The notes: generated from the sequence alone by a model not told the origin. DNA of 64,000 bases from an uncultured Clostridia bacterium (GCA_947625765.1 CANQPP010000001.1:7763-71762), one strand, 5' to 3'; counted from the stretch's first letter, positions 1,462 through 63,744 are shown. Numbers and translations: made by a program.

Positions 1462-4400
1462 GGCGATACCTCCTCCCTTTCGGCCTCAGCGGCCACGTCC
1501 TCCAGGCGCACGCTCACCATGCGGGAGACGCCCCTCTCCTCCATGGCCACGCCGTACAGGCTGTCGCAGCGCTCCATGGTGCCCTTGCGGTGGGTGATGA
1601 CGATGAACTGCGTGTTTTGAGAATAGTTGCGCAGATACTCCGCGAAGCCGTCCACGTTGTTCTCATCCAGCGCAGCCTCGATCTCGTCCAATATGCAGAA
1701 GGGCGAGGGCCGGATGGCCAGCATGGAGAAAAGCAGCGCGATGGCGGTCAGCGCCCGCTCCCCGCCGGAGAGCAGGGACAGCAGCTGCAGCTTCTTTCCC
1801 GGCGGCTGGGCCACGATGTCGATGCCGCAGTTGAGGCAGTCCGCCTCGTCCTGGAGCTTCAGCATCGCCGTGCCGCCGCCGAACAGCTGGGCGAAGATGC
1901 CGCTGAAGTGCTGGTCGATCTGCCGGAAGCGCTCGCGGAACAGCGTCTCCATCTCGCGCGTTAAGTCCCGGACGATGGTCTCCAAGTCCCGCCGCGCCTT
2001 GAGCAGGTCCTCCTTCTGGCCTGAAAGCGCATCGAAGCGCTCCTTCGTCTCCTCGTATTCCTGTATGGCGGCCAGGTTCACGGTGCCAAGGGCGCGCACC
2101 TGGCTGCGGATCTCCTCCACGCGGGCGGCGGCGGACTTTTCGTCGAAGTCCTCCTGCCACAGCTCCTTCGCGCTGCCGTAGGTCAGCTCGTGCCGCTCCC
2201 ACAGGCGGTCGGCCAGCTGCCGCTTTTCGTCCCGGGCGCGATTCAAACGCGTTTCCAGCGAGCGGCTCAAGTCCCTCTGCTTTTCCAGCTCGCCGGACAG
2301 CTCCTCGATCCTCTGCGTCAGGGCGCGCAGCTCTGCCTGGGCGCGGGCGCGCTCGTTGGTCACGCGCGTGAGCTCCCGATCCTTCTCCTGCAGCAGCCCC
2401 TCCGCCTCCCCTTGGTCGGCGCGGTTCTGCTCTAGGGCCCTTTCGTCCTCTGCGCGTCGCGCTTCCAGCGCCTGCCGGGCGCGGGCGCGCACCTCGGCGG
2501 AGCGGCGGATCTGCTCCTCGTCGCCCTCCAGCCGCTCGGCCTCCCGGCGCAGGGCCTCCAGACGGGCCTTGGTCTCGGCGTGGGCCGCGCTCTGCCCGGC
2601 CAGCGCCTGCCGCACCGCCTCCAGCGCCTCGCGGCCCTCCCGCAGCCTCTCGTTGAGCGCGGCGATGTCCGCCTGCGTGGTGGTGGAGGCCTGCTCCGCC
2701 TCCCCGGTCTGCTCGCGCAGCTGGCGGAACTCCTCGTCGATGTTCTTTAAGCTGTCGTCCAGCCGCTCCTTTTCCCCTTCCAGGGAATACACGGCCTCCT
2801 GGGCGGCGGCGCGGGCGTCCTTTGCGGCGGCCAGGCGCGTCTGGACGCGCAGCATCTCCATCTCCTGCTCCCGCAGCCTGCCCGCGATCTCCTCCTGTGC
2901 GGCGCGGTCCGCCTCGCTCTCCCGGCGCAGGCGCTCAAGCTCCTCTTGGCTCTGCCGCAGCCGCTCCTCGAGCCTCGCCACGGCCTGCCTGTGCTCCTGG
3001 ATCTCCCTCTCGCGGGACAAAAGGGACGTGGTCCTCGCCTGCTGGCTGCCGCCGGTCATGGAGCCGCCGGAGTGCATCACGTCGCCCTCCAGCGTCACCA
3101 GGCGGAAGGCGTGGTTGCCCCGCCGCATGATGGCGATGCCGCTGTCCAGATCTTCCGCCAGCACCGTCCTGCCCAGCAGGTTCTCGAACACCCCGCGGAA
3201 CTCCTCGGGGAACTGCACCAGCTCGCTGGCCACGCCCAGACAGCCGGGCATGGACAGCACCTCCCGCTCGCGGGGATTCAGCGTCCGGCCGCGGACGGCG
3301 CTCACCGGCAGGAACGTGGCCCTGCCCAGATGCTCGCGGCGCAGCGTCTCGATCATGCGCTTGGCGTCCTCTTCCCGGCGGCAGACGATGTTCTGCATGG
3401 CGGGGCCCAGCGCCATCTCCACGGCCCTTTCCAGTTCCTTTGGCACGGTCAGGAGGGACGCGGCTACCCCGCAGAGCCCCTCGTCCCCGGCGAAGCGGCG
3501 CAGCAGCTCCCGCACGCTGTTCTGGTAGCCGTCGTAGTCCCGGCGCATCTGCTCGAGCATCTTGAGCCGCGAGGACGCCTCGCGCAGCGCCCCGGCGATC
3601 CTCTGCCCGCCGGCGCTCTCCCGCTCCATCCGCGCCGCCGCCTGCGCGGCGCTCTCCGCCGCGCGCTGGCTCTCCTGTTTTAAGGCCGCCTGCGCGCGCT
3701 GCACGGCCGCGCGGGCGTTTTCCGCTTCCTTCAGGTCGTTCTCGGCGTTTATAACACCCTCGCGCGTCTTTTCCAGCGTCTCGTTGAGCTTCTGCCCCTG
3801 CGCCTGCAGGGATTCGCGGGTGGCGGTCAAGCGGGCGGAGACGGCCTTTACGTCCGTCAGGCGGTTGAAGGAGGCGATCATCTCGCCCTTGGCTTCCTCC
3901 GCGCGCGTTTCCATCGCCCGCACGTCCTCCTCGCGGGCGCGGGCCTCCGCCTCCGTTTGCGCCATGCGGGCCTGCAGCTCGTCCAGCTCCCTCTGGCGGC
4001 TTTCCATGTCCCGCCGCTTTTCGGCCTGCTGGGCGCTGAGGCCGCCCTTTTGCGTGCGGGCGCTCTCTTCCTCGGCGCTTAGGCGTTCCAGCTCCGTCCC
4101 GGCCGAGCCGATCCTCTGGGACAGCAGCTCCCCCTCGCCGCGCAGCATCTCGCTCCGGCGGGTGAGCTCCACCAGCTCCTGGTTGAGAGAGGACAGCGCG
4201 CCGTCCAGCTCCGCGGCCCGGCTCTCGGCCCCGGCGCTTTTTTCCTGCGTGCTTGTTCTTTGCGCCTGCAGCTCCTCCAAGGCGGCCGCGCAGTCCGCGC
4301 TCTGGCCGTCCAGCTTCTCTATGTTCCTGTCCAGCGCGTCGCTCCTGCGCACGAAGGCGTTGGCCTCCAGCACGCGGGTCTCTGCCATCAGGCGGGTATA

Positions 4401-5042
4401 GAGCCGCGCGGCGCGGGACTGCTCCTCCAGCGCGGGCAGCTTCTGGCCCACCTCCTGCAGGATGTCCTCCACCCGCCCCAGGTTCTGGTCGGTGTTCTCC
4501 ATGCGGCGCTCGGCTTCCTGGCGGCGGGCCTTGAACTTGGTGATGCCCGCGGCCTCCTCGAACACGTTGCGCCTGTCCTCGCTGCGCACCGAGAGGATCT
4601 CGTCGATGCGCCCCTGCCCCACGATGGAGTAGCCCTCCCGGCCGATGCCGGTATCGCGGAACAGGTCCACGATGTCCTTTAAGCGGCAGGCGGACTTGTT
4701 GAGCAGGTACTCGCTGTCCCCGCTGCGGTAGACGCGACGGGTCACCTGCACCTCGGCAAAGTCGATGGGCAGCGCGCCGTCCTCGTTGTCGAACACCAGC
4801 GTGACCTCGCAGAAGTTGAGCGCCTTGCGGGCCTGTGTGCCGCCGAAGATCACGTCCTCCATGCGCGCGCCGCGCAGGGACTTGGCGCTCTGCTCGCCCA
4901 ACACCCAGCGCACGGCGTCCGCGATGTTGCTCTTGCCGCTGCCGTTTGGGCCCACCACGCCCGTGATCCCCTCGCCGAACTCCATCCTCGTCCGTTCCGC
5001 GAAGGACTTAAAGCCATAGATCTCAAGCCTTTTCAGTCGCAA
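1458..5042 (-). CDS. smc: chromosome partition protein SMC
   Basis: 1194 aa. N-terminal Walker A (GPNGSGKSN), long coiled coils, a hinge, and C-terminal LSGGE signature plus Walker B (FCILDEIEAALD). TTG start at 5042 with AGAGGA SD 9 nt upstream. Confidence 0.95.
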   Translation of the reverse strand: MRLKRLEIYGFKSFAERTRMEFGEGITGVVGPNGSGKSNIADAVRWVLGEQSAKSLRGARMEDVIFGGTQARKALNFCEVTLVFDNEDGALPIDFAEVQVTRRVYRSGDSEYLLNKSACRLKDIVDLFRDTGIGREGYSIVGQGRIDEILSVRSEDRRNVFEEAAGITKFKARRQEAERRMENTDQNLGRVEDILQEVGQKLPALEEQSRAARLYTRLMAETRVLEANAFVRRSDALDRNIEKLDGQSADCAAALEELQAQRTSTQEKSAGAESRAAELDGALSSLNQELVELTRRSEMLRGEGELLSQRIGSAGTELERLSAEEESARTQKGGLSAQQAEKRRDMESRQRELDELQARMAQTEAEARAREEDVRAMETRAEEAKGEMIASFNRLTDVKAVSARLTATRESLQAQGQKLNETLEKTREGVINAENDLKEAENARAAVQRAQAALKQESQRAAESAAQAAARMERESAGGQRIAGALREASSRLKMLEQMRRDYDGYQNSVRELLRRFAGDEGLCGVAASLLTVPKELERAVEMALGPAMQNIVCRREEDAKRMIETLRREHLGRATFLPVSAVRGRTLNPREREVLSMPGCLGVASELVQFPEEFRGVFENLLGRTVLAEDLDSGIAIMRRGNHAFRLVTLEGDVMHSGGSMTGGSQQARTTSLLSREREIQEHRQAVARLEERLRQSQEELERLRRESEADRAAQEEIAGRLREQEMEMLRVQTRLAAAKDARAAAQEAVYSLEGEKERLDDSLKNIDEEFRQLREQTGEAEQASTTTQADIAALNERLREGREALEAVRQALAGQSAAHAETKARLEALRREAERLEGDEEQIRRSAEVRARARQALEARRAEDERALEQNRADQGEAEGLLQEKDRELTRVTNERARAQAELRALTQRIEELSGELEKQRDLSRSLETRLNRARDEKRQLADRLWERHELTYGSAKELWQEDFDEKSAAARVEEIRSQVRALGTVNLAAIQEYEETKERFDALSGQKEDLLKARRDLETIVRDLTREMETLFRERFRQIDQHFSGIFAQLFGGGTAMLKLQDEADCLNCGIDIVAQPPGKKLQLLSLLSGGERALTAIALLFSMLAIRPSPFCILDEIEAALDENNVDGFAEYLRNYSQNTQFIVITHRKGTMERCDSLYGVAMEERGVSRMVSVRLEDVAAEAEREEVSP

Positions 5043-5098
5043 ATCCGTCTATCCTCTGCATAAAAGTGTATTTTGGAAGGCCGTTTCACCCGACGCCT

Positions 5099-5269
5099 TC
5101 AGCCCTCTTTGGCCATCTTCTCTAAAGCGGCCCTGGCGGCCTCGCGCTGGGCGTCCTTCTTGCTCTCGCCGCTGCCCTGCCCTGCGGGCGTGTCGCCCAG
5201 CATGGCCTCGCAGCTGAACACAGGCCTGTGGCCGTCTATCCTCTGCTTAAAGTATATTTTGGAAAACAT
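5099..5269 (-). pseudogene. duplicated rnc 3' fragment (copy nearest smc) retaining an intact 56-codon ORF
   Basis: ATG at 5269..5267 in the spacer. It reads MFSKIYFKQRIDGHRPVFSCEAMLGDTPAGQGSGESKKDAQREAARAALEKMAKEG*. Last ~40 aa match the rnc C-terminus. No convincing SD; expression unknown. Confidence 0.5.
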
Positions 5270-5284
5270 CTCGGCCCGACGCTT

Positions 5285-5455
5285 TCAGCCCTCTTTGGCC
5301 ATCTTTTCTAAAGCGGCCCTGGCGGCCTCGCGCTGGGCGTCCTTCTTGCTCTCGCCGCTGCCCCGCCCCGCGGGCGTGAAGCCCAGCATGGCCTCGCAGC
5401 TGAACACAGGCCTGTGGCCGTCTATCCTCTGCTCAAAGTGTATTTGGGAAGGCAT
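5285..5455 (-). pseudogene. duplicated rnc 3' fragment (middle copy) retaining an intact 56-codon ORF
   Basis: ATG at 5455..5453, 16 nt after the true rnc stop. It reads MPSQIHFEQRIDGHRPVFSCEAMLGFTPAGRGSGESKKDAQREAARAALEKMAKEG*. Same architecture as 5099-5269. Confidence 0.5.
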
Positions 5456-5470
5456 CTCAGCCCGACGCCT

Positions 5471-6124
5471 TCAGCCCTCTTTGGCCATCTGCTCCAGGGC
5501 GGCCCTGGCGGCCTCGCGCTGGGCGTCCTTCTTGCTCTCGCCGCTGCCCTGTCCCGCGGGCGTGTCGCCCAGCATGGCCTCGTAGGTGAACACGGGCCTG
5601 TGTGGCGGCCCTTCCTGCCCCACCAGCCGGTAGGTGGGCGTTATGCCCATCTCCTTCTGGGTCCTCTCCTGCAGCTCGGACTTGTAGTCCCGGGCCTTCG
5701 GCGGCGCGGGCAGGTTGAGTATGTGCCCGTCGGCCACCTGGAAAGCGGCGTCCAGCCCGCCGTCCAGGTACACGGCGCCCAGGACCGCCTCCACCGCGTC
5801 GGCCAGTATGGAGGGTTTCTCCCTGCCGCCGCTGGCGATCTCCCCGGGCCCTAGGCGCAACAGCCTTCCCAGGCCCCAGTTCACGGCCACGCGGTACAGG
5901 GCGCTCTCCTGCACCAGCGATGCGCGCAGGCGGCTCAAACTCCCCTCGTGCATCTCCCGGTGGCTCTCGTACAGCCTGTGGCTCGAGCAGAGCTGCAAGA
6001 CCGCGTCGCCTAAAAACTCCAGGCGCTGGTTGTTCTCCTGCGCTGCGGAGGGGTGCGTGAGCGCCAGCTCCAGCAGCTTTTCGTCCCGAAAGCGGTAGCC
6101 GATCGTCTCCATCAGCGATTGCAT
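5471..6124 (-). CDS. rnc: ribonuclease III
   Basis: 217 aa. RNase III signature ERLEFLGDAVL is present, followed by a C-terminal dsRBD (...YEAMLGDTPAGQGSGESKKDAQREAARAALEQM). Synteny acpP-rnc-smc. Confidence 0.95.
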   Translation of the reverse strand: MQSLMETIGYRFRDEKLLELALTHPSAAQENNQRLEFLGDAVLQLCSSHRLYESHREMHEGSLSRLRASLVQESALYRVAVNWGLGRLLRLGPGEIASGGREKPSILADAVEAVLGAVYLDGGLDAAFQVADGHILNLPAPPKARDYKSELQERTQKEMGITPTYRLVGQEGPPHRPVFTYEAMLGDTPAGQGSGESKKDAQREAARAALEQMAKEG

Positions 6125-24250: not shown

Positions 24251-25140
24251 GCGGGATGGAAGAGAAGCGGCCCGTCCTGTACGTGGCCGCCACGCCCATC
24301 GGCAACCTGTCCGAGGCCTCGGACAGGCTGAAGGCCGTGCTGGCGGAGGCGGACACCGTGCTCTGCGAGGACACGCGCGTCACCCACAAGCTCTTTTCCG
24401 CCTTCGGCATCCCGGTGAAAAGGCTCATCTCCTGCCACCAGTACAACGAGCGGAAGAAGGCCGCCGCCCTCATGGACCGTCTGGCGGAGGAACGGGGCGT
24501 TTACTGCCTGGTCACGGACGCGGGCACGCCCTGCATCTCCGACCCCGGCTTCGCGGTGGTGCGCGCCGCCTGGGAGCGGGGCGTCACCGTCCAGCCCGTC
24601 GCGGGCCCCTGCGCGGCGGCGGCGGCCCTGTCCGTCAGCGGCTTCGAGCTGCCGGGCTACGCCTTCTTCGGCTTCCTGCCCCGGGAGAACAAGCCCCGCG
24701 CCGAGGCCCTGCGCCGCGTGCGGCTCTGCTCCCTGCCCGCAGCGGTGCTGTACGAGAGCCCCTTCCGGGTGAAGGAGCTGCTGCGCGAGCTGGACGAGGC
24801 CCTGCCCGGCGTGTTCGTGAGCCTCAGCTGCGACCTCACCAAGCTGTTCGAGCGCACGCTGCGCGGCACCCCGCAGGAGCTGCTGGCCGCGCTGGAAAGC
24901 CTCCCCAACGCCGAAAAGGGCGAATACGTGCTTGTGCTGGATTTGAGCGCCGTCCCGCCGCCGCCCGCGCCTCATAAGCCCTCTGCCCGGGCGATGCTGC
25001 TGGACATGGTGCTGGACGGCGTTCCCCTGCGCGAGGCCGTGCAGCGCCTGTCCGGCATGGAAGGCTACACCCGCAACGAGGCCTACAAGGCGTCGCTGGA
25101 AGTCGCGCCTCTGATAGAAGAAGCCGAGGACGACGAGTGA
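24247..25140 (+). CDS. rsmI: 16S rRNA (cytidine1402-2'-O)-methyltransferase RsmI
   Basis: 297 aa. LYVAATPIGNLSEASDRLKAVLAEADTVLCEDTR...TDAGTPCISDPG is the tetrapyrrole-methylase-fold RsmI signature. Confidence 0.9.
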   Translation: MSGMEEKRPVLYVAATPIGNLSEASDRLKAVLAEADTVLCEDTRVTHKLFSAFGIPVKRLISCHQYNERKKAAALMDRLAEERGVYCLVTDAGTPCISDPGFAVVRAAWERGVTVQPVAGPCAAAAALSVSGFELPGYAFFGFLPRENKPRAEALRRVRLCSLPAAVLYESPFRVKELLRELDEALPGVFVSLSCDLTKLFERTLRGTPQELLAALESLPNAEKGEYVLVLDLSAVPPPPAPHKPSARAMLLDMVLDGVPLREAVQRLSGMEGYTRNEAYKASLEVAPLIEEAEDDE

Positions 25141-25278
25141 GCCGACGCCTTCCCTTCTTGCTCTTGCCCGTTCAAGCGCTTTTAGCCGCCGTTTTGACCC
25201 CATCTATGACAGTTGCTTCTCCGACGGAGCGGACCCGCTTTCCTGCCCAGAGCTCCGGCGGGCTTTTGCGGAGGAACT

Positions 25279-25704
25279 ATGGAAAGAATCTTTAGAATAT
25301 GTTTGCCGTTGCTCCTTCTGCCCATATTTTTAGTCTCGCTCGCTGCCTGTGACAACGCAGAAAGCGATGCGGATATATTTGAGGAGATCCGGACCGCTCC
25401 TGTCGTTAAGCTGGAGAGCGCGCAAGATACGGATAACGGACCGATCTTCTGTGACAATGCGGGCACAACAGCTTCCCTTGCAGACATGGCACTTCAGCCG
25501 TCTGACGAAGAATTTGATGGAGAATGGCTGTATCGCTTCACTTATGACCCCGCGGAAAAGGTACCGAATGGGCATGAGATCGTCGTTGCTTTGGGAGAAG
25601 CTAGGATGGAAATCGACGGCGTTACATACGTTGCCGGGGAGGGCGTCGACTTCTCCAGTATCTTGGAGTGGGCGGAGGGAGCCTATAATTACTATTCAAA
25701 GTAG
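25279..25704 (+). CDS. putative lipoprotein, function unknown
   Basis: Start at MERIFRICLPLLLLPIFLVSLAAC (ATG 25279, GAGGA SD). It has a signal peptide plus an L-A-A-C lipobox. Noticeably lower G+C than its neighbours. Confidence 0.6.
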   Translation: MERIFRICLPLLLLPIFLVSLAACDNAESDADIFEEIRTAPVVKLESAQDTDNGPIFCDNAGTTASLADMALQPSDEEFDGEWLYRFTYDPAEKVPNGHEIVVALGEARMEIDGVTYVAGEGVDFSSILEWAEGAYNYYSK

Positions 25705-25727
25705 GATATATGAAAAATTTTGTATTT

Positions 25728-25764
25728 CGGCGGCTTTGAGAGATCAGGCCGCCGTTTCCTTTTG
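25728..25764 (+). terminator. rho-independent terminator after the lipoprotein gene
   Basis: CGGCGGC (25728-25734) pairs with GCCGCCG (25748-25754), followed by TTTCCTTTTG. Confidence 0.65.
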
Positions 25765-25907
25765 TCCCCCAACATCCGCGAATGGCTTTTTTGGCACGGA
25801 CAGGCGGCGCAGCATGACGTACACATAGATAGCCCCGTCCTTTATGTGTTTGCTTTTTTGCCATTCTTCGTTAAAGAAATAACTATTCATTTACAAAGGG
25901 TCATTTA

Positions 25908-25936
25908 TTGTTTTTTGCCGCGCGTTGCAGTAGAAT
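25908..25936 (+). promoter_or_regulatory. putative promoter of the rnf operon
   Basis: TTGTTT (25908-25913), 17-nt spacer, TAGAAT (25931-25936), ~100 nt upstream of rnfC in an AT-rich spacer. Confidence 0.35.
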
Positions 25937-26037
25937 ATATATGTTTGTATGCCGTCCGCGCTTTGGCCCGCTGAAGGCCCGTTCCGCGGCGGCAGGTTCC
26001 CTTATTCCATTCTTCATATCAGTTGGGAGGCCGTGCC

Positions 26038-30109: not shown

Positions 30110-31090
30110 ATGCTGCTACAAATACTGATCCCCACACTGCTTTTGGGCGGCATGGGCGCGCTGTTCGCCGCGGGCCTGGCCTACGCCGGCAAGAAGCTGG
30201 CGGTGCCCCAGGACGAGCGCATCGACCAGGTGCGCGCCTGCCTGCCGGGCGCGGGCTGCGGCGCCTGCGGCTACACCGGCTGCGACAGCTACGCCGCCGC
30301 CGTGGTGCAGGAGGGCGCGGCCACGAACCTCTGCCCCGTGGGCGGGGCAGCCGCCGCGCAGCAGATCGCCAAGATCATGGGCGCGGACGCCTCCGAGGCC
30401 CCCGTGCGCATGGTGGCCACGGTGCTCTGCCGGGGCGACAACGACATGTGCCACAGCCGCTTTGAGTACAAGGGCCTGCAGGAATGCCGCGCGGCCTTCC
30501 TGGCCTCCGGCGGGGCGAAGGCCTGCAAATACTCCTGCCTGGGCCTGGGCTCCTGCGAAAAGGTGTGCGCCTTCGGGGCCATCCACGTGGAGAACGGCCT
30601 GGTGCACATCGACCCGGACAAGTGCACCGGCTGCAAGCGCTGCATCTCCGTCTGCCCCAAGAACGTGATCCGCTTGGAGCCCGCCGACCTGCGCTCCGTG
30701 CTGCGCTGCCGCGCCCTGGAGAAGGGCCGCGCCGTGCGCGACGTCTGCACCGCCGGGTGCATCGCCTGCGGCAAGTGCGAAAGGAGCTGCAAATTCGGCG
30801 CCATCACGCTGCAGGACAACCTGCCCGTTGTGGACATGGAGAAGTGCGTGGGCTGCATGGAGTGCGTGCGCGTCTGCCCCACCGGCGCGATGGACGGCGA
30901 TTTGAGCAAGCGCAAGAAGGCCCATGTGGACGCCGAGAAGTGCGTGGGCTGCACCATCTGCGCCAAGCAGTGCCGCTTTGACGCCATCCACGGCGCGCTG
31001 AAGGAGAAGCACTCCGTCGACCAGGAGCTCTGCACCGGCTGCGGGCTCTGCGCCGCCAAGTGCCCCAAGAAGGCCATCACGCTGGAGTGA
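30110..31090 (+). CDS. rnfB: Rnf complex subunit B with extra ferredoxin domains
   Basis: 326 aa. N-terminal TM helix, a CGACGYTGC cluster, then several CxxCxxCxxxCP 4Fe-4S motifs (CTGCKRCISVCP, CIACGKCERSC, CVGCMECVRVCP, CVGCTICAKQC, CTGCGLCAAKCP). Confidence 0.92.
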   Translation: MLLQILIPTLLLGGMGALFAAGLAYAGKKLAVPQDERIDQVRACLPGAGCGACGYTGCDSYAAAVVQEGAATNLCPVGGAAAAQQIAKIMGADASEAPVRMVATVLCRGDNDMCHSRFEYKGLQECRAAFLASGGAKACKYSCLGLGSCEKVCAFGAIHVENGLVHIDPDKCTGCKRCISVCPKNVIRLEPADLRSVLRCRALEKGRAVRDVCTAGCIACGKCERSCKFGAITLQDNLPVVDMEKCVGCMECVRVCPTGAMDGDLSKRKKAHVDAEKCVGCTICAKQCRFDAIHGALKEKHSVDQELCTGCGLCAAKCPKKAITLE

Positions 31091-31114
31091 TCCTCCGCAT
31101 CCAACGAACCCGCC

Positions 31115-31153
31115 GAAGCCCCCGGCCAGCAAACGCCGAGGGCTTCTTCTTTT
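31115..31153 (+). terminator. probable terminator of the rnf operon
   Basis: GAAGCCC (31115-31121) pairs with GGGCTTC (31140-31146), an 18-nt loop, followed by TTCTTTT. Confidence 0.5.
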
Positions 31154-31154
31154 C

Positions 31155-31720
31155 CCCAAAAGCGCCTTCTTTTGGGCAATTCAAGCACACCGGAACCACC
31201 CAAAGCCCCGGCTTCCCTTTCCTTTCAAAGAAAAAACCCGGCCTTATACGGGAAAAGCGCCTCCCGCCTTCCATAGAAGAAAACCACCCGGCAGCGCTCT
31301 CTTCGTGAAAAGAACCACCTTTCCCGCTTTTCTTTTCAAAAAAAGGCCCTGACTTCATAAAAAACGACCCAGCCCTTATAGGAAAACCGTCTCCGCCTTC
31401 ATAAGAAAAAGTGGTGCGCCTTTATTAAAAGCCGCCCGGCGGCGCTCTCTTCGTGAAAAGAACCCCTTTCCCGCCTTTCTTTTCAAAAAAAGGCCCTGTC
31501 TTCATAAAAAACGACCCCGCCTTCACGGAAAAGCGCCCCTGCCTTCATCAGAAAACCGTCTCCACCTTCATCAAAAAAGCCACTCGCCTTCATCAAAAAG
31601 CCGCCCGGCGGCACTTTTTTCGTGAAACGAGCCGTCTTTCCATGACTTTCTATTGAAAAAAGCTCCTACTTTCAAAAAACGGCCCATCTCCGCAGAAAAA
31701 CCGCCTCCCTTCCGCGCACG
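31155..31720. repeat. non-coding array of degenerate 21-23 bp A-tract units nested in ~147-170 bp higher-order repeats
   Basis: The CTTCA(T/C) core sits at 31353, 31375 (CTTAT variant), 31397 and 31420 (CTTTAT). It recurs at 31500, 31521, 31543, 31566 and 31588, with spacings of 21-23 bp. The longer block CCCGGCRGC...TTCGTGAAA begins at 31287, 31435 and 31605. A ~50-nt near-identical segment (TTTCCCGC..TTTCAAAAAAAGGCCCTGNCTTCATAAAAAACGACCC) occurs at ~31320 and ~31467. Confidence 0.85.
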
Positions 31721-31721
31721 C

Positions 31722-31761
31722 AAAAGGAGCCGGGACGGCTGCGCGCCGCTCCGGCTCCTTT
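31722..31761. terminator. bidirectional terminator after proS
   Basis: GGAGCCGG (31726-31733) pairs with CCGGCTCC (31751-31758), flanked by AAAA (31722-31725) and TTT. On the minus strand the hairpin is followed by TTTT. Confidence 0.6.
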
Positions 31762-31787
31762 GTGGGTCTATATGGGAAGTTCGCTCC

Positions 31788-33533
31788 TTACAGGCGGCAG
31801 TCCAGCTTGGCCAGCTCGTCGCGGACCAGCTTCTCCACGAAGTCCGCGACCTCAGCCACGGCGGGCTTTTCCTGCAGGCTCTTGTCGCGCAGGGAGACCT
31901 CCAGCGCGCCGTTCTTCAGGGCGCGGGGGCTGACCACCACGCGCACGGGCACGCCCAGCAGGTCCGCGTCGGAGAACATGACGCCGGCGCTCACGGCGCG
32001 GTCGTCCAGGATCACCTCGATGCCGCGGCCTTCCAGCTCCTCGTAGAGGGCCTTGGCCGCCTGCGCCACCTCGGTCTGGTCGGCGCGCAGCACACAGATG
32101 TGCACCTGCCAGGGCGCGATGGAGATGGGCCAGATGGGGCCGTAGTCGTCGCGGCTGACCTCGCACACGGAGGCGGCCAGGCGGCCCAGCCCGATGCCGT
32201 AGCAGCCCATGATGGGCGTCTGCAGGCTGCCGTCCTGGGCCAGGTAGCGCATGTTCATGGGCTTTGTGTACTTATCGCCCAGCTGGAAGATGTTGCCCAC
32301 CTCGATGCCGCGCTTTAGGTCCAGGCTGTGCCTGCCGCACTCGGGGCAGACGCCGCCCTGCTTGGCCTTGGCAACGTCAACATAGCTGACCTCGCCCACG
32401 TCGCGCCGGATGTTGAACCCGGTGTAGTGGTAGTCCTTCTCGTTGGCGCCGGTGGTCAGGCACTCGATGCCCTGCAGGGAGCTGTCGAACACCACGGTCA
32501 CGTTCTGTGGCAGGCCCATGGGGCCGCAGAAGCCCAGCACCAGGGGCGCGTTCTCCTCGTCGTACACGGCGGGGTGCACCTCGCACCCCAGGTGGTTGCG
32601 CAGCTTGGTCTCGTTGACGTCCAGATCGCCGCGCACGAAGGCCACCACGGGGGTATCGTCCGCGTTGCGCTGGTACATGACGGCCTTGCAGGTCTGCTCG
32701 GGCGTAATGTGCAGGAGCGCACACAGCTCCTCGATGGTCTTGGTGCCCGGCGTGTGCACCTTCTGCAGGGGCTGCTCTTCGCCCGGCTCGTTCTGCGTCA
32801 CGCTGGGCGCGGCCTCCATGTTGGCGCGGTAGCCGCACTCGGGGCACAGGACGATGGTGTCCTCGCCCACGTCGGTCAGCAGCATGTATTCGTGGGAGAC
32901 CTTGCCGCCCATCATGCCCGAATCCGACGCTACGGCCACCACCTGCGGGATGCCCACGCGGGCGAAGATGCGGTTGTAGGCCTCATAGCAGCGGGCGTAA
33001 TAGGCCTCCAGATCCTCCTGGGAGGTGTGGAAGGAGTAGCCGTCCTTCATGGTGAACTCGCGCACGCGGATCAGGCCGCCGCGGGTGCGGGGCTCGTCGC
33101 GGAATTTGGTCTGGATCTGGTAGATCATGAAGGGGAACTGGGTATAGGAGTCGACCACGTCCCGCGCCAGGTGCACGGCGGCCTCCTCGTGGGTCATGCC
33201 CAGCACCATATCGCTGCCGCTGCGGTCCTTAAAGCGCAGCATCTCGCTGCCGATGGACTCATAGCGGCCGGACTCGCGCCACAGGCTGGCCGGCATCGCC
33301 ACGGGGAAGAGCACCTCCTGGCCGCCGATCCTGTCCATCTCCTCGCGCACGATGTTCTCGATCTTGCGGATCACGCGCTTTCCGGGTGTCAGCAGCGTGT
33401 AGATGCCGTTGCCCACGGCCTTGATGTAGCCGCCGCGGATCATCAGCGCCTGGCTCTGGATCTGGCAGTCGGCGGGCGTTTCCTTAAAGCGCCTGGAGAC
33501 CAGTTCGGAAAGATACATCGGGTTCTGACACAT
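31788..33533 (-). CDS. proS: proline--tRNA ligase (bacterial type, with INS editing domain)
   Basis: 581 aa. Class II aaRS motifs are present (FRDEPRTRGGLIRVREFTMKD, GCYGIGLGR) with an insertion domain between motifs 2 and 3. Start is ambiguous between ATG 33533 and ATG 33518 (MYLSEL...); neither has a good SD. Confidence 0.92.
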   Translation of the reverse strand: MCQNPMYLSELVSRRFKETPADCQIQSQALMIRGGYIKAVGNGIYTLLTPGKRVIRKIENIVREEMDRIGGQEVLFPVAMPASLWRESGRYESIGSEMLRFKDRSGSDMVLGMTHEEAAVHLARDVVDSYTQFPFMIYQIQTKFRDEPRTRGGLIRVREFTMKDGYSFHTSQEDLEAYYARCYEAYNRIFARVGIPQVVAVASDSGMMGGKVSHEYMLLTDVGEDTIVLCPECGYRANMEAAPSVTQNEPGEEQPLQKVHTPGTKTIEELCALLHITPEQTCKAVMYQRNADDTPVVAFVRGDLDVNETKLRNHLGCEVHPAVYDEENAPLVLGFCGPMGLPQNVTVVFDSSLQGIECLTTGANEKDYHYTGFNIRRDVGEVSYVDVAKAKQGGVCPECGRHSLDLKRGIEVGNIFQLGDKYTKPMNMRYLAQDGSLQTPIMGCYGIGLGRLAASVCEVSRDDYGPIWPISIAPWQVHICVLRADQTEVAQAAKALYEELEGRGIEVILDDRAVSAGVMFSDADLLGVPVRVVVSPRALKNGALEVSLRDKSLQEKPAVAEVADFVEKLVRDELAKLDCRL

Positions 33534-34388: not shown

Positions 34389-34805
34389 TTAAACGTCCTC
34401 TTCGTCCTCCTCGTCTTCGCCGTCCTCTTCCTCCAGCTCGTCCTCTTCCTCGTCCTCGTCGTCCATGCTCAGCTCCCGGTCGATCTCCTTGAACTCGGCG
34501 CTGGGGATGTCCTGGTCGATGGAGATGGCGATCTCGTTCATGCCGCTGGCCATGTCCAGGCCGGCCACGTCCTCGGCGGCTAGGGCCTCATCGTCGGACT
34601 CGGCGCGCTCCTGGCGGTGGATCTCCTTCAAGCAGAAGGCGCACAGCTCCTCGCCGGGCACCACGGGATGCTCGCCGCACTCGGAGCAGAGTTCGATGTC
34701 CTCCCTCTCCTCCTCGCCGCGCATCTCGCGCTTGCAGACGGTGCAGTATTTTTCCGTATCGGGCATGTAATTCAGTTCGCAGCGAGGGCATTTGATCAAG
34801 GCCAT
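34389..34805 (-). CDS. zinc-ribbon protein with strongly acidic C-terminal tail
   Basis: Trimmed to MALIKCPRCELNYMPDTEKYCTVCKRE...CSECGEHPVVPGEELCAFC (ATG 34805, GGAGGA SD). Two CxxC pairs occur twice. The last ~35 residues are almost all D/E (DDEDEEEDELEEEDGEDEEDEEDV). Confidence 0.6.
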   Translation of the reverse strand: MALIKCPRCELNYMPDTEKYCTVCKREMRGEEEREDIELCSECGEHPVVPGEELCAFCLKEIHRQERAESDDEALAAEDVAGLDMASGMNEIAISIDQDIPSAEFKEIDRELSMDDEDEEEDELEEEDGEDEEDEEDV

Positions 34806-35107
34806 GGATGCAGGTCCTCCCGTCGTTTTTCCGCCAAAACGGTTTGCTGAAAGCGGGCCCGGCTTCCGCCGCGGGCGTTTTTCCCCGCATTTAGACACGC
34901 GGAAAAGCAAGACCCCTTTTCTCGTGCAATAGTATATACCCTATGCCCCTGCCGCGCAAGGGTCGAATTTGTAAGTTTTAGGGGAAAATGCGGCCCGCGC
35001 CCGCTTTTTTCCGAAGCGGCCATAAAGAGCCCGGCGAAAGACGCGGCGCGGGGCTTGAAAAATGCCCTGCGCCGCTTGAAGTCAAAGGGAGATCGCCCGC
35101 GCTTTTT

Positions 35108-56696: not shown

Positions 56697-56708
56697 CCTA
56701 ATGTCAAG

Positions 56709-58313
56709 TCACAGGGCCAAAGTCTGACTTCCAATATTGCCTACGAACCTGTAGAAGATTTCTATCTCCTGCGTTTTGCCCCCGTTCGGGTTAGCGACCT
56801 TCTCATGTACGACAATCTTTTGGATAAGAGCCGTGAGCATCTCACGGGTGAGTTCTGTGGGGCGAGTATACTTCTTGAGCAACTTGATCCACTCTTCGGC
56901 GTTCTCAGTCTCATCCGTGGTTTTATAAAGCTGTTCTTTGAGTTTAGACACTTTCTCAGTGAGCGATGCTTGTTCCCCCTGGTATTTCCCCGTCAGTGTC
57001 TCAAATACACGTCCAGGGATTTTCCCGAACGATCTATCCTCATACACTTTGACGAACAAATCATCCAACTCGTCCAGCCTCTTTTCTGCCCGGCGCAGTT
57101 CTTCCTCTATCCTCCTTCGCTCAGACCTCTCGTTTCTCCTGTTGCTTCGTAGGATCATTTCTAGCATCTCATCCTCATCTTTTTGAACGATGGATGTGTA
57201 ATACTGCAAGCGCTTCAACACCAAGTCATAGATGGTATCATAAAGGATATAATGGGAAGGACATGGTTTGGTAATCTTGTTGGATTCACACATAAACCGC
57301 TTGCGGCCATTATTGGGCTTGTAGTGTAGATGATTACCACAGGTTGAACACACTAACATGCGAGAAAAAAGGTTTGGTTCGCCGCTCTTTAATTGCCGAT
57401 GTCGTCCTTCTATCAACTCTTGTACCAGATAAAATTCTTCTCTGGAAACAAGAGGTTCATGGGTATTCTCGACCGTCTGCCATTCAGATTTCGGCGCGCT
57501 TATGACCATAGGGGATTTGAAGGATGGCTTCTTGTACTTCCCATATACAGTATCGCCCATATATACGGGATTTCGGAGAATCCTCAAGACGGTTGACATA
57601 TCCCATTCAAACTTTTTTTCTTCGGAGATTCTAATTGTCCCCATTGGATAGAACCATCTAGGTATTGGAATCTGATTCTCCGCAAGAGTTCTAGCAATCG
57701 TCTTGCATCCATGGCCTTGCACTGCCAAACGAAACATTTTCTCTACGATCCAACTGTGTTCAGTGTCTACTAGAAGATGTCCTTTCTGCTCCGGGTCACG
57801 TTTGTAGCCAAGTGGCGGTGTCGTACAATAATATGCTCCTTTTCCCTTCCTTGTGGCGAGAGCGGACTTTACCTTCTTGCTCGTCTGCCGGGCTTGCATC
57901 TCGTTTAGGATATTCAAGAAAGGAGCGAGTTCATTATCCCCGGCCATTGTGTCCACGTTATCATTCACCGCGATGTAACGGACATTCTTGCTGGGAAAAT
58001 AAATCTCAGTGTACTGGCCTGTCATGATATAGTTTCGACCGAGGCGGGATAAGTCTTTCGTAATAACGCAATTGATCTTTCCTTCCTCGATATCCTCTAT
58101 CATCCTTTTGAAACCAGGACGGTTGAAATTAGTGCCAGACCAGCCATCATCTATATACTCATCGACTATGTTCATTCTATGCTCTTGGGCATACTCATTA
58201 AGTAACATCCGCTGAGTTTGGATACTAGCGCTATCCCCTTTTAGTTCGTCGTCTTTGCTTAGTCTCATATAAAGCGCCGTGTTGTAAACCTTTGCGATAG
58301 TGGGCTGTTTCAA
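56709..58313 (-). CDS. large serine recombinase (phage integrase type)
   Basis: N-terminal resolvase domain (ALYMRLSKDD...SIQTQR..., catalytic Ser context) followed by VITKDLSRLGRN, then recombinase and zinc-ribbon/coiled-coil domains (CSTCGNHL...C). I place the start at TTG 58313, 7 nt after AAAGGAGG. The ORF-track ATG at 58337 contains that SD. Confidence 0.9.
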   Translation of the reverse strand: MKQPTIAKVYNTALYMRLSKDDELKGDSASIQTQRMLLNEYAQEHRMNIVDEYIDDGWSGTNFNRPGFKRMIEDIEEGKINCVITKDLSRLGRNYIMTGQYTEIYFPSKNVRYIAVNDNVDTMAGDNELAPFLNILNEMQARQTSKKVKSALATRKGKGAYYCTTPPLGYKRDPEQKGHLLVDTEHSWIVEKMFRLAVQGHGCKTIARTLAENQIPIPRWFYPMGTIRISEEKKFEWDMSTVLRILRNPVYMGDTVYGKYKKPSFKSPMVISAPKSEWQTVENTHEPLVSREEFYLVQELIEGRHRQLKSGEPNLFSRMLVCSTCGNHLHYKPNNGRKRFMCESNKITKPCPSHYILYDTIYDLVLKRLQYYTSIVQKDEDEMLEMILRSNRRNERSERRRIEEELRRAEKRLDELDDLFVKVYEDRSFGKIPGRVFETLTGKYQGEQASLTEKVSKLKEQLYKTTDETENAEEWIKLLKKYTRPTELTREMLTALIQKIVVHEKVANPNGGKTQEIEIFYRFVGNIGSQTLAL

Positions 58314-58335
58314 GATGTGCCTCCTTTCATATAAC

Positions 58336-58396
58336 AACCCACGCTTACAGTGCTTTTGCTACGGGCAATTATACCATAAGCGTGGTTTCATCTCAA
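58336..58396 (-). promoter_or_regulatory. integrase promoter embedded in a 12-bp inverted repeat
   Basis: Minus strand: TTGAGA (58396..58391), 17-nt spacer, extended -10 TGGTATAAT (58376..58368). IR arms AACCCACGCTTA (58336-58347) and TAAGCGTGGTTT (58377-58388), one mismatch, bracket the -10. Confidence 0.5.
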
Positions 58397-58405
58397 GTAT
58401 TATTC

Positions 58406-58546
58406 TTAATTTAAATCAGCGCTCTCACTAATGATGCTCTGGACAATCAATTCACCAAGAGTGGTCTTTTCATCTTCAAGGAAATGCTCTACTAGCTTGA
58501 TCTCAACGTCCCCGCGCCGCTTATTCTTGTGACCGCCATTATTCAT
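58406..58546 (-). CDS. possible 46-aa ORF overlapping the phage dut stop
   Basis: Not in the ORF track (too short). ATG 58546..58544 overlaps the dut stop (ATGAATAA). It reads MNNGGHKNKRRGDVEIKLVEHFLEDEKTTLGELIVQSIISESADLN*. No homology recognised. Confidence 0.3.
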   Translation of the reverse strand: MNNGGHKNKRRGDVEIKLVEHFLEDEKTTLGELIVQSIISESADLN

Positions 58547-59009
58547 TCGTGCTGCCAAAACCACCCGTTCTATTAGCGTTAATTGTGTCAGTAGAATCGC
58601 CGTCTAAGTACGAGACGAATATCCCTTGGGCGACCCTTTCTCCGGCCTTAATATCAACAGGATTCTTACCGTAATTATGTAAGCAAATGCCAATATTTCC
58701 GCCGTTATCTTCGTTCATGAAGTAGTCCTTGTCAATCACTCCAACGGTGTTGGCAAGCATCAGATTACGCCTAATACCGATACTGCTGCGCACGAAGATG
58801 AGAAGCACATCATGTTCGCCGTTCATGTAGGATGCAACGTCAGTCCAGATGAGATGGCTCTTGCCGGGTTCAATCGTGACATCGATCGGGCAGAAGAAGT
58901 CATACCCCGCGCTATACTTACTGCCTTTCACAGGGAGCTTGATTTCAGCCCCCTTATTTTTTACGAACTTCTCAGGAACCTTCACGAACCCTCTTTGAGA
59001 TGTTGCCAA
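58539..59009 (-). CDS. dut: dUTP diphosphatase (element-encoded copy)
   Basis: Motifs SAGYDF, RSSIG, VGVIDKDYF...NGGNIG and GGFGSTN. I place the start at TTG 59009, 7 nt after GGAGGAG, giving M-ATSQRGFVKV, parallel to host MRGFERV. Confidence 0.8.
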   Translation of the reverse strand: MATSQRGFVKVPEKFVKNKGAEIKLPVKGSKYSAGYDFFCPIDVTIEPGKSHLIWTDVASYMNGEHDVLLIFVRSSIGIRRNLMLANTVGVIDKDYFMNEDNGGNIGICLHNYGKNPVDIKAGERVAQGIFVSYLDGDSTDTINANRTGGFGSTNE

Positions 59010-59013
59010 TCTA

Positions 59014-59205
59014 TCACTCCTCCACATTCTTGTAGTACAGGCCACAATGACACCAGCCGCTCTTGTTCATCATTAAGAACTCGTCGCACACGCACTTGTT
59101 CTCTGGCAGATGTTCCACCTTGCACGGGCAGTACCCGTCGTTCTCCTTAATGGCCTTTCTAATCTCTGCCGCCTTTTCCACGTCCTCGTTCACCTTAAAC
59201 CGCAT
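59014..59205 (-). CDS. ferredoxin-thioredoxin-reductase catalytic-subunit-like small Cys-rich protein
   Basis: 63 aa. ...ENDGYCPCKVEHLPENKCVCDEFLMMNKSGWCHCGLYY carries a CPC...CxC...CHC arrangement, like the FTR catalytic chain / short bacterial FTR-like proteins as I remember them. Confidence 0.55.
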   Translation of the reverse strand: MRFKVNEDVEKAAEIRKAIKENDGYCPCKVEHLPENKCVCDEFLMMNKSGWCHCGLYYKNVEE

Positions 59206-59675
59206 TAGAGAACCTCCTTGATTGTGCCGGGGCGATAGCCATCAATAGCTCTCTGAACCAAGTATTCGTTCATTGCAATCTTTAGCCTGTAGTAGGCAAT
59301 TCTCTCGCCTGTATATAAATTGAACTCATCCTCGGGACTACACTTTGCGATACCAACCCAATCATCTAATACTGCCTTCACAATGTGCCCGTCAGTGTAG
59401 ATGGAGGCAATCAACGGATCACTATCCATCCTAACCTTGTGGACAAAGTGCATAGGCTCCTCCCGCTGGAGAATGACGCAGTTCTTCATGAAGAAGTCGA
59501 GGTCGAAGATACCAGTTCCGATGTCAGGCTTCGCATTCAACTTGCTCGGAACAGTGAACAAGATGAATCCATCTCTAGTTACTTCCTTGACGATGCCTGC
59601 TCTCCCCTTGAGTTTCTCAACGGGAGCATTCTTAATCTCGAATTGGACACCGGGGACAATCAAATCTGGACGCAT
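59205..59675 (-). CDS. hypothetical phage protein
   Basis: 156 aa, coding-like composition, in operon context. No family recognised (C-terminal ...GIAKCSPEDEFNLYTGERIAYYRLKIAM). Confidence 0.5.
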   Translation of the reverse strand: MRPDLIVPGVQFEIKNAPVEKLKGRAGIVKEVTRDGFILFTVPSKLNAKPDIGTGIFDLDFFMKNCVILQREEPMHFVHKVRMDSDPLIASIYTDGHIVKAVLDDWVGIAKCSPEDEFNLYTGERIAYYRLKIAMNEYLVQRAIDGYRPGTIKEVL

Positions 59676-59684
59676 AGTTCCTCC

Positions 59685-60806
59685 TTACGCCGCTACGGGC
59701 AAAGTCTTTAAGTAGTTCTCGTACCCTGCCAATGATCTTCTATCCATAAAATCTAAGTCTTGATTAAAAGCTCTCTTGGCCTGTACAACTTTGTTGTTTC
59801 TGATTTCTAGCGTAATATAACTCTTGTCAGGCGATGCCTTGTCACGCATGAATACGATGTGGCACTTGCCTTCGAGAACGAGGTTGATGTAGCTGGCAAC
59901 GCAGTTGTTCTGCTGCACGGCCTCGTCCTTAATATCCTGCGTAGAACGCGGATACCGCCAAACAAACCTGCCGTCGCTCCATTCATAGGCCGGGTTCACT
60001 TTAGACGCAAACTCTCTTTCATCGAACTCCTTCATCAATCTCTCGTAGCTCCTAACCATGATGCGCTCGGTAGTAAGCAAGTTTCTCGGATACTTATCGT
60101 ACTTCTCGCTGATTTTAGAGGCCATTCTTAGATAGTCTTTCCAACAATCAAGAAGTCCGTTTATTGCCAACGCTTCATATGTCATGATTTTATCGACGTA
60201 GGTGAACAGAGCTGAGTTAGAGATGTGGTAGGCATTTTTTATTACTAAAAATAAGTTGCCGTACCGATGTCCATCATGAATATCCCAATAGACCGCATGG
60301 CGAAACACGCCCAATAAATCTTTTGGGGTTAGGCTTTGCCATTCATGGTAGAAAGCGTACTGCATCATGTCGGGGTCTTTCATGTATTCGTCGTATAGGT
60401 TCTGATCCAGCTTAATATCAAAGTCCCGGCAGATTTTTAGAAGCCCTTTTGGAACATCAGACGATGGGAGGCGAAACTTGAGTGATACGTTTACACCCAT
60501 GGCGAAGAATTGCTCGGCGTAAGGATACCACTTGGCTCTATCTAGTAACGATCCGAAGTTTATCAGGGAAAATGACTGTTCGTCATAAACAGCGGTAAGA
60601 AACACTCTATACCTTGGCTCTTGTATCTTCTCCAAAAGGCTAGGAATGCTTTCTCCATGGAGTTGCGCACGCAAATCCTTGACAGGTTTTCCGCGCTTGC
60701 CTATTGTTTCTCTCGTCGAGAGATTGTACTTGACCGTGCTACCATCTTCCAAGTAAAAGGTAAACAGCGGGCCATCCTTCACTATTTTCTCTACCGTGGG
60801 GTTCAC
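59685..60806 (-). CDS. PcfJ-like domain protein
   Basis: 373 aa, GTG start. C-terminal ...YPRNLLTTERIMVRSYERL...DEAVQQNNCVASYINLVLEGKCHIVFMRDKASPDKSYITLEIRNNKVVQAKRAFNQD matches my recollection of the PcfJ-like domain. Confidence 0.55.
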   Translation of the reverse strand: MNPTVEKIVKDGPLFTFYLEDGSTVKYNLSTRETIGKRGKPVKDLRAQLHGESIPSLLEKIQEPRYRVFLTAVYDEQSFSLINFGSLLDRAKWYPYAEQFFAMGVNVSLKFRLPSSDVPKGLLKICRDFDIKLDQNLYDEYMKDPDMMQYAFYHEWQSLTPKDLLGVFRHAVYWDIHDGHRYGNLFLVIKNAYHISNSALFTYVDKIMTYEALAINGLLDCWKDYLRMASKISEKYDKYPRNLLTTERIMVRSYERLMKEFDEREFASKVNPAYEWSDGRFVWRYPRSTQDIKDEAVQQNNCVASYINLVLEGKCHIVFMRDKASPDKSYITLEIRNNKVVQAKRAFNQDLDFMDRRSLAGYENYLKTLPVAA

Positions 60807-60829
60807 CGCCTTTGTTTCTTGATGCTAAC

Positions 60830-60856
60830 ACTATACCATCTCAAACCTAGTTGCAA
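60830..60856 (-). promoter_or_regulatory. possible internal promoter upstream of the PcfJ-like gene
   Basis: Minus strand: TTGCAA (60856..60851), 15-nt spacer, extended -10 TGGTATAGT (60838..60830). Confidence 0.35.
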
Positions 60857-60864
60857 CAATAGTT

Positions 60865-60908
60865 TTTGAAAAAAATATATAATTAAGGAGGGGCTAATGC
60901 CCCTCCTT
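60865..60908 (-). terminator. rho-independent terminator after nrdG
   Basis: Perfect 10-bp stem, AAGGAGGGGC (60885-60894) with GCCCCTCCTT (60899-60908), TAAT loop. On the minus strand it is followed by AATTATATATTTTTTT. Confidence 0.65.
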
Positions 60909-60909
60909 T

Positions 60910-61557
60910 TTATTCCTCTTCAATCTCGTCTTTCGAGACGAAAGGATGAACTTCATAGGGCGTTGACTTCTTGTAAATGCGGCGCAGATACCGTATGTAT
61001 GATTCGCACACCTCGAAGGCAGACTCTGGTAAGAGTGGGTACTTTACTGAACGAATCTGGTTGAACCCTTTGTCGTATGAGACCGCGTAGTGGATGGCGT
61101 TCAGCATATCCGTTATCATTTCCGGGCTGTACTTCACGCCCAGAACTTCTTTAACCAGTTCCCCATCCTCTTTATCCGGCAAGAGCAAGTGGTACGGCAG
61201 CTTCATATCGACGTGGAAACCATCTACTAGCCCCATATCCATGAGCCACACCATCTCGTTTGGATGCGTACCATTGGTATAAATGATGATGATACCGCCG
61301 GGCGGGAGGTGACTACGGATTTCCCGTAGATCACTCTCCACATCCCTTATATCTCCTTGCAGATACTCGTCCCCGGAGAGGACTACGCAATCTACAAGGT
61401 CTTTATTCAACTCAATGTACTTCGTCACATCGTCTATGCTGTATGAGACAATGCCCGGCTCATGCAACATATCCCGATTGAGACATTGGTAGCAGTTGAG
61501 GTTGCATCCAGTGAGCGCATGTACTATAAGTGCCCTACGTCCGGCTATTTCCGACAT
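60910..61557 (-). CDS. nrdG: anaerobic ribonucleotide reductase activating enzyme (radical SAM)
   Basis: 215 aa. CNLNCYQC (CxxxCxxC) is near the N-terminus. The gene lies immediately downstream of nrdD. Confidence 0.8.
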   Translation of the reverse strand: MSEIAGRRALIVHALTGCNLNCYQCLNRDMLHEPGIVSYSIDDVTKYIELNKDLVDCVVLSGDEYLQGDIRDVESDLREIRSHLPPGGIIIIYTNGTHPNEMVWLMDMGLVDGFHVDMKLPYHLLLPDKEDGELVKEVLGVKYSPEMITDMLNAIHYAVSYDKGFNQIRSVKYPLLPESAFEVCESYIRYLRRIYKKSTPYEVHPFVSKDEIEEE

Positions 61558-61583
61558 GGATATAGATAGCCGTGGGTAGTATC

Positions 61584-63416: not shown

Positions 63417-63530
63417 AAAGTTACTGTTCTCCCGCTTTAGGTAGTCAGACTTCCAGTCCTGTTCGTTGCCTACGAATTTGTCAATTAGTGAGTTTGTGTC
63501 ATGAAATACTGCGATAGGTCAACACTTCCT

Positions 63531-63728: not shown

Positions 63729-63744
63729 ATAGCATCACCTCCTT

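Follow-up and report, generated by a model that had tools for sequence, protein, structure and literature searches.

The 697-bp gap that separates the convergent genes rnfB and proS is occupied, between the terminator hairpins of the two genes, by repeated sequence throughout and by nothing else, and on balance we take this array to be a lineage-specific tandem repeat of hierarchical, intergenic type, in other words a minisatellite of bacterial kind in which a higher-order unit is superimposed, situated at a rearrangement junction. Within the window (the whole 64,000-nucleotide stretch of DNA analysed, which comes from an uncultured Clostridia bacterium), rnfB lies at 30110-31090 on the plus strand (Pfam FeS and Fer4) and proS at 31788-33533 on the minus strand (Pfam tRNA-synt_2b, tRNA_edit and HGTP_anticodon). 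The source belongs to an uncultured Clostridia lineage; among named relatives, its ProS points to Candidatus Ventricola and its RnfB to a Christensenellaceae metagenome-assembled genome. An initial reading of the DNA, made from the sequence alone, had given each flanking gene its own terminator hairpin, and both hairpins proved to be real and strong. The arms of the rnfB terminator are 12 nt long and 92% complementary, and its predicted folding energy of -21.2 kcal/mol (z -3.8) was equalled by none of 200 shuffled sequences; the proS terminator, read on the minus strand, gave -32.7 kcal/mol (z -4.8). These two elements delimit the array:

31115-31157, plus strand: intrinsic terminator of rnfB and left boundary of the array; hairpin at 31115-31146 followed by the T-rich tail TTCTTCTTTTCC.
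31723-31761, minus strand: intrinsic terminator of proS and right boundary of the array; 17-nt arms and the minus-strand tail UUUUGCG.

When cut at each A-run of at least 4, the array (31149-31721) resolves into about 24 short units of 18-30 nt that share one consensus, in which an A-run of 4-7 nt is followed by a G/C-rich block and then by CTTCAT or a variant of it. The short units are themselves grouped into a higher-order unit of 147-169 bp that occurs four times; the central copies, H1 and H2, share 84-87% identity, and each outer copy (H0 and H3) is 74-77% identical to H1/H2. The features of the array, from left to right, are as follows:

31155-31176, plus strand: weak second hairpin, CCCAAAAG-N6-CTTTTGGG (-9.3 kcal/mol, z -2.1); the match to the higher-order profile (31149-31278) starts about here.
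31178-31279, plus strand: H0, a degenerate outer higher-order copy, with a profile match from about 31149; 74-75% identity to H1/H2, z 7-8; nhmmer E 0.002.
31231 and 31253, plus strand: b-like and d-like short units inside H0.
31280-31426, plus strand: H1, a 147-bp higher-order copy with units of 28, 30, 21, 24, 23 and 21 nt; 84% identity to H2, z 45; nhmmer E 1.5e-44.
31287-31310, plus strand: first copy of the long segment, CCCGGCAGCGCTCTCTTCGTGAAA; the palindrome is degenerate here.
31338-31426, plus strand: first block of phased short units, with spacings of 21, 24, 23 and 21.
31427-31594, plus strand: H2, a 168-bp higher-order copy with one short unit (31529-31551) more than H1; nhmmer E 4e-42.
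31435-31458, plus strand: second copy of the long segment, with the palindrome GCCGCCCGGCGGC just before it at 31431-31443; hairpin -11.3 kcal/mol, z -1.7.
31485-31594, plus strand: second block of phased short units, with spacings of 21, 23, 23, 21 and 22; a 22-nt period repeated 5.2 times.
31595-31721, plus strand: H3, a decayed outer higher-order copy abutting the proS terminator; 74-77% identity to H1/H2, z 20-22; nhmmer E 9e-34.
31604-31627, plus strand: third copy of the long segment, with the palindrome GCCGCCCGGCGGC just before it at 31600-31612; -8.6 and -9.9 kcal/mol, z -0.8 and -1.2.

Both levels of the repeat were recovered in repeat searches. Tandem Repeats Finder reported a 147-nt period present 1.9 times at 87% identity (31280-31555), together with periods of 22-23 nt, and a repeat search returned 10 copies of a 24-mer spaced 21-23 apart as well as the long segment three times, at distances of 148 and 169. 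With up to 2 mismatches allowed, the core CGCCTTCATNAAAA was found 12 times in the window (1.13 expected; none of 100 shuffles reached 12), and 8 of these matches lie in the array; all three occurrences of the 24-mer CCCGGCRGCRCTYTYTTCGTGAAA in the window fell in the array, the expected number being 0. The non-coding array of phased A-tract units with a higher-order period that had been described from the sequence is therefore real and lies beyond shuffle expectation, with several corrections of detail. Seven of the nine CTTCA cores first listed are as described, but those at 31375 and 31420 are the variants CTTAT and CTTTA; the positions given for the long segments were correct to within one base, the third copy starting at 31604 and not at 31605. 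The extent originally proposed holds as far as it goes, but the array reaches further left to take in the fourth, degenerate copy (31149-31279; nhmmer E 0.002). The phasing of the A-tracts holds only inside the two blocks, where spacings are 21-24, and is interrupted by longer units of 27-30 bp.

The distribution of A-tracts gives the array the property that stands out most clearly. The interval from the rnfB stop codon to proS (31091-31790) contains 21 A-runs of at least 4, one of which lies in an arm of the proS terminator. The periodicity of AA dinucleotides in the array showed peaks at 21.1, 24.7 and 10.6 bp, with a power of 3.4-4.2 compared to a maximum of 1.12 in 300 shuffles; it was the strongest A-tract periodicity in the 64-kb window, and the value of 4.2 exceeded that of all 6767 windows taken from 723 kb of related genomes (maximum 3.16). 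Two windows of high periodicity in those relatives (L048 and L049) were ordinary low-G+C coding sequence. Curvature was computed with a dinucleotide wedge model, using parameters after Bolshoy et al. (1991), and controls behaved as expected. Under this model the ratio of end-to-end distance to contour length was 0.37 for the array and 0.18 for the 566 bp starting at 31301, against a mean of 0.876 (SD 0.09) for the 64 kb and a mean of 0.84 (minimum 0.47) for shuffled versions of the array; the lowest predicted ratio of all positions in the window fell in the array, so that the model makes it the most curved stretch of the 64 kb. The periodicities of 21.1 and 10.6 bp agree with the helical repeat that the model assumes, 10.54 bp. 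Thus, A-tracts recur at two helical turns and strong curvature is predicted, which bears out the earlier suggestion of intrinsically curved DNA and makes predicted curvature the one robust property of the array. Phasing alone is no proof of selection, however, since a unit of 21-23 bp would lie near a helical multiple by chance about 1 time in 3.

The array is untranslated and contains no recognisable RNA gene. Four open reading frames that can be called in it have GC3 values of 0.47-0.59, as opposed to 0.77-0.96 for the real genes, and none of the four has a Pfam match, so the initial judgement that they are not credible is upheld. Across the window, Rfam returned nothing at the gathering threshold; a relaxed search of the array region, with E values up to 10, gave only chance-level matches to eukaryotic miRNA and lncRNA families.

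The distribution of the array was assessed in related genomes, comprising five lineages on the rnfB side and two on the proS side, with one genome in both sets. Another record of the same species (L001) carries proS and 318 nt of the array in identical form and then ends inside the repeat. The other relatives had ProS identities of 79% (L082) and 77% (L085) and RnfB identities of 86% (L189, L190), 85% (L192, L193), 73% (L196) and 70% (L194, L195), the closest relative compared to the source being at 86% RnfB identity. The array was absent from every related lineage recovered (RnfB 70-86%, ProS 77-79%); in these genomes the gap after rnfB or proS is 62-240 nt long and contains one ordinary terminator. 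Absence from close relatives had been named beforehand as a sign of neutral expansion, and among the lineages recovered this is what was found; it favours neutral expansion, and points to a process that is neutral or at most architectural. Wider searches revealed no further copy. In the GTDB representative genomes, where the best ProS identity was 65%, the motif was present in none of 80 loci; the long-segment pattern had 0 matches in 241 million metagenome records and 0 in viral contigs; and BLAST against plasmid and phage collections gave no match to the array.

The same relatives also lack the gene arrangement in which the array is found. Local synteny is conserved on each flank separately (Metallophos-proS for proS, HD-TP_methylase-rnfCDGEAB for the rnf operon), and adjacency of rnfB and proS was found in none of the related lineages recovered. 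As each flank keeps its own synteny and the two are adjacent only here, the array sits exactly on the junction of a lineage-specific rearrangement. The gene that follows rnfB varies across the relatives (L189-L196, L082 and L085), being a 126-aa open reading frame, a DUF362 gene, an MFS transporter or a gene for a Tricorn-like protein; because it differs in each of the related lineages compared, the 3' end of the rnf operon would be a recurrent breakpoint of synteny in the clade. Position relative to the replication terminus had been listed for checking; a location at either terminus or origin was not supported, as cumulative GC skew has no turning point at the array.

These observations lead us to regard the array as probably a by-product of duplication. 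A founder unit of about 22 bp, made up of an A-run, a G/C-rich block and CTTCAT, may have been multiplied by slipped-strand mispairing, after which a block of six or seven units (147-169 bp) would have been multiplied about four times by unequal recombination. This expansion would have taken place at the 3'-3' junction of the rnf operon and proS, which was created by rearrangement in this lineage only. Slippage followed by unequal recombination would give a homogenised centre, as in the 84-87% identity of H1 and H2, and decayed edges, as in the 74-77% identity of the outer copies. A second and unrelated tandem multiplication in the window (186 bp, three times, at 5045-5602) indicates that duplication at such a scale recurs in this genome. 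Local alignments of the founder unit with the tail of the rnfB terminator gave z 2.0-2.8, which is suggestive and not significant.

Two kinds of repetitive DNA provide the closest comparisons for such a history. Bacterial intergenic minisatellites or VNTRs, such as the mycobacterial MIRU-VNTR, are lineage-specific; slippage and unequal recombination are the proposed means of their growth, and no function is required of them. The array likewise consists of head-to-tail repeats of tens of bp in a non-coding gap between genes, and so falls within the usual definition of a minisatellite as head-to-tail repeats of 10-200 bp in non-coding DNA. Unlike MIRU-VNTR, which are dispersed over many loci, it has two nested levels (22 bp in 147-169 bp), divergent units and a single known locus. 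In eukaryotic satellite DNA, monomers are arranged in higher-order units, and a homogenised centre with decayed edges is the signature of unequal crossing-over; the array has the same nested monomers, homogenised centre and decayed edges, but at 0.57 kb as opposed to hundreds of kb or Mb, and in a bacterium, with no centromere role implied.

If the array has any role, it would most likely be an architectural one, as a bent spacer of lower G+C content that lies between two strong terminators and parts convergent transcription units, and such a spacer could attract nucleoid proteins that prefer bent DNA. According to PMC4761138 (citing Tolstorukov et al., 2005) and PMC3940949 (Tong and Mrazek), A-tract clusters phased with the helical repeat are predicted to be curved and are proposed to aid folding of the nucleoid together with architectural proteins, and the clusters so described are about 100 bp long, statistical and scattered. 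The array resembles them in having A-runs of at least 4 that are phased with the helical repeat, and in its predicted curvature; it differs in owing its phasing to a 570-bp tandem repeat, situated at a convergent gene junction, in which an A-tract returns at every second turn and always on the same strand. In keeping with these proposals on A-tract clusters and nucleoid proteins, the role of architectural spacer would be the most defensible. Among bacterial intergenic tandem repeats and A-tract clusters, the array is unusual for its nested organisation and the extreme bend predicted for it. Of the interpretations first offered for this DNA, curved DNA alone is supported, as a prediction of the wedge model.

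We considered whether the repeats might instead be some 15-20 sites, all of one polarity, for a DNA-binding protein with sequence specificity and a gene at another locus, which would contact the core GCCTTCAT and the A-tract on one face every two turns, and assemble a wrapped or filamentous complex, like that of iterons or centromeres, or a topological barrier at the convergent junction. The repeats are direct and all in the same orientation, spaced 21-23 bp within blocks, and the predicted curvature would suit wrapping. Moreover, per-column conservation across the units was 0.8-1.0 for the CTTC core and the A-run compared to 0.3-0.7 for the G/C block, a difference that could point to a binding site under selection as opposed to neutral decay. 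The 22-bp spacing is typical of plasmid iterons (PMC3387028), and the array resembles the 22-bp direct repeats of theta plasmids (PMC3387028, PMC4980987) in period, single orientation and conserved core. However, the short units are only about 62-75% alike (the 24-mers match their reference copy at 67-75%, and one paralogous pair reaches 96%), and no gene for Rep, Par or another DNA-binding protein adjoins the array, which is chromosomal and lies between housekeeping genes. Its absence from all relatives recovered also argues against such sites, and we regard this explanation as improbable, though of the alternatives it fares best.

The narrower idea of an iteron-type replication origin, put forward in the sequence-only reading, is not supported. 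Near-identical repeats of 17-22 bp would be required, and these units diverge much more (per-column conservation 0.3-0.9); the genes on either side are rnfB and proS, and a Pfam scan of 19 further proteins, a part of those encoded in the window, showed no Rep domain. An AT-rich unwinding element and DnaA boxes beside the repeats are features of iteron origins (PMC4980987, PMC3387028), whereas here an AT-rich block is lacking, G+C nowhere in the gap falling below 0.46, and DnaA boxes are absent both from the array and from about 11 kb around it. A looser pattern of phased cores did retrieve 103 metagenome loci, all of them perfect tandem repeats and including iteron-like arrays with a similar spacing, but the search pattern itself imposes their likeness to the array, and the nearly perfect units of the iteron-like arrays contrast with the divergent ones seen here. 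Loci in this set with periods of 21 or 24 bp, a multiple of three, are probably coding repeats. Others are perfect 22-bp direct repeats of the form CCTTCAT-GGAAAAG-N8 in 3 to 11 copies (L102, L116, L130/L142, L159, L135, L180, L115 and L126), which adjoin the start of a gene in L115, L126 and L180 and are followed by AATCAAG repeats in L102, L159, L135 and L180. These perfect arrays, all on gut contigs of low G+C content, have the look of one family of replication origins from plasmids or phages.

A role at the level of RNA appears slightly less probable still. Read-through from rnfB would give a 550-nt transcript, C-rich, G-poor and weakly folded, that might load Rho and so stop antisense transcription into proS; alternatively, a proS 3'-UTR or stand-alone RNA with (A/G)UGAAGG or CCUUCAU motifs might titrate an RNA-binding protein or small RNA. 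The composition of the array is compatible with the first form of this idea: the plus strand is 34% C and 16% G, with a GC skew of -0.25 to -0.40 throughout and an accompanying excess of A over T, and it has the sequence character of a rut region (at least 80 nt that are C-rich, G-poor and poorly structured). From this strand asymmetry a plus-strand transcript would be expected to fold poorly and a minus-strand transcript well, and the computed energies were -153.5 and -242.7 kcal/mol, respectively, the latter with z -3.8 from 20 shuffles only. The C-over-G and A-over-T asymmetry could thus reflect a function in RNA. The C/G ratio over 100 nt, however, reaches 2.8 in the array, which is high yet not unique within the window, and with both flanking terminators strong little read-through is to be expected. 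No match to a sigma-70-like promoter was found in the array and, as noted above, no Rfam family; the core motif was no more unpaired than background on either strand (0.48 compared to 0.49 on the plus strand, 0.30 compared to 0.32 on the minus strand); and nothing of the array is conserved in the relatives. Internal terminators were sought in the GCCGCCCGGCGGC hairpins and in one other hairpin, but at -8.6 to -11.3 kcal/mol (z -0.04 to -1.7) these were no better than shuffled sequences. A sponge RNA of the CsrB/RsmZ type was rejected in the same way, as it would lack a promoter match, a GGA-loop pattern, an Rfam match and any preference of the motif for unpaired positions. The proposal of a structured or terminator-rich RNA consequently found no support.

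The array might also be one locus of a dispersed intergenic family, similar to REP/BIME or MIRU, or what is left of a decayed mobile element responsible for the rearrangement. The REP/BIME elements of enterobacteria are extragenic G+C-rich palindromes, often found at the 3' ends of convergent genes, for which an interaction with gyrase and DNA-bending proteins has been proposed. The array shares with them an extragenic position at convergent 3' ends and the possession of short G+C-rich palindromes, one of which, GCCGCCCGGCGGC, is perfect and present in two copies; it lies exactly at a break in synteny, and the window represents only 64 kb of the genome. Against this, BIMEs exist as hundreds of dispersed copies with inverted palindromic units, while the array is a single locus of direct repeats in which palindromes are minor. 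Neither pattern searches nor nhmmer profiles revealed a second copy in the window, and none was present in 723 kb of relatives; the profiles matched the array alone, apart from a marginal hit (L036, E 0.0036) to a terminator hairpin of ordinary type. Together with the absence of copies from the metagenome, viral, plasmid and phage sets searched, this gives no support, within the sequence covered, to the genome-wide repeat family suggested at the outset. No transposase or integrase gene adjoins the array, and we consider a dispersed family or remnant unlikely.

A similarly doubtful proposal would make the array a dedicated architectural element, in which about 20 weakly specific sites of one polarity (GCCTTCAT and an A-tract every two turns) on curved DNA wrap or nucleate a nucleoid protein or gyrase where the positive supercoils of the converging operons meet. 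It would then be a single-locus, direct-repeat analogue of the gyrase-binding BIMEs in a Clostridia lineage that is without them.

The least probable explanation is an artefact of assembly, either a chimeric join or a wrong copy number, such as short reads can produce when a metagenome-assembled genome is put together across repeats: the contig analysed is of metagenomic origin, L001 stops at a repeated segment within the array, and 147-bp units of 87% identity are hard to assemble, but L001 matches proS and 318 nt of the array with zero differences, the copies differ by 13-26% and so are not collapsed duplicates, G+C content and GC3 are alike on both flanks, and the closest genome relative of both flanks is the same assembly (GCA_050309765.1), which argues against a chimeric contig.

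If the array is the neutral expansion of a minisatellite, as we favour, it would provide a clean bacterial case of satellite-like evolution of higher-order repeats at a rearrangement junction. It would then be a likely locus for strain typing as a VNTR, and a caution both to annotators, because of the spurious open reading frames within it, and to assemblers, because contigs are prone to break here. Should the curvature or the conserved core prove functional, the array would represent a rare purpose-built spacer of bent DNA between convergent operons in one lineage of uncultured gut Clostridia.

Several other features of the window were recorded in the course of the analysis. The tandem repeat at 5045-5602 has a period of 186 nt present 3.0 times at 90% identity, and extends over the gap that separates smc (1458-5042, minus strand) from rnc (RNase III; 5471-6124, minus strand) and over the 3' end of rnc; its two extra copies look like a duplication of the C-terminal part of rnc and the sequence downstream. 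From 56700 to 64000 there is an island of low G+C content (0.41-0.54, compared to 0.63 for the window), which begins with a large serine recombinase (56709-58337), followed by a dUTPase, a PcfJ-like protein, a radical-SAM activase and the anaerobic ribonucleotide reductase NrdD, and which is probably an integrated phage or mobile element. The 882-bp gap upstream of rnfC (25140-26023) has a G+C content of 0.49-0.58 and may contain a small low-G+C open reading frame starting near 25280. Finally, an in-frame tandem repeat of 6/9/18 nt (TCCTCCTCGTCCTCTTCC) at 34394-34464 lies inside a 173-aa open reading frame (34389-34910, minus strand), whose protein has no Pfam match; read on the coding strand, the repeat would give an acidic stretch rich in Glu and Asp.
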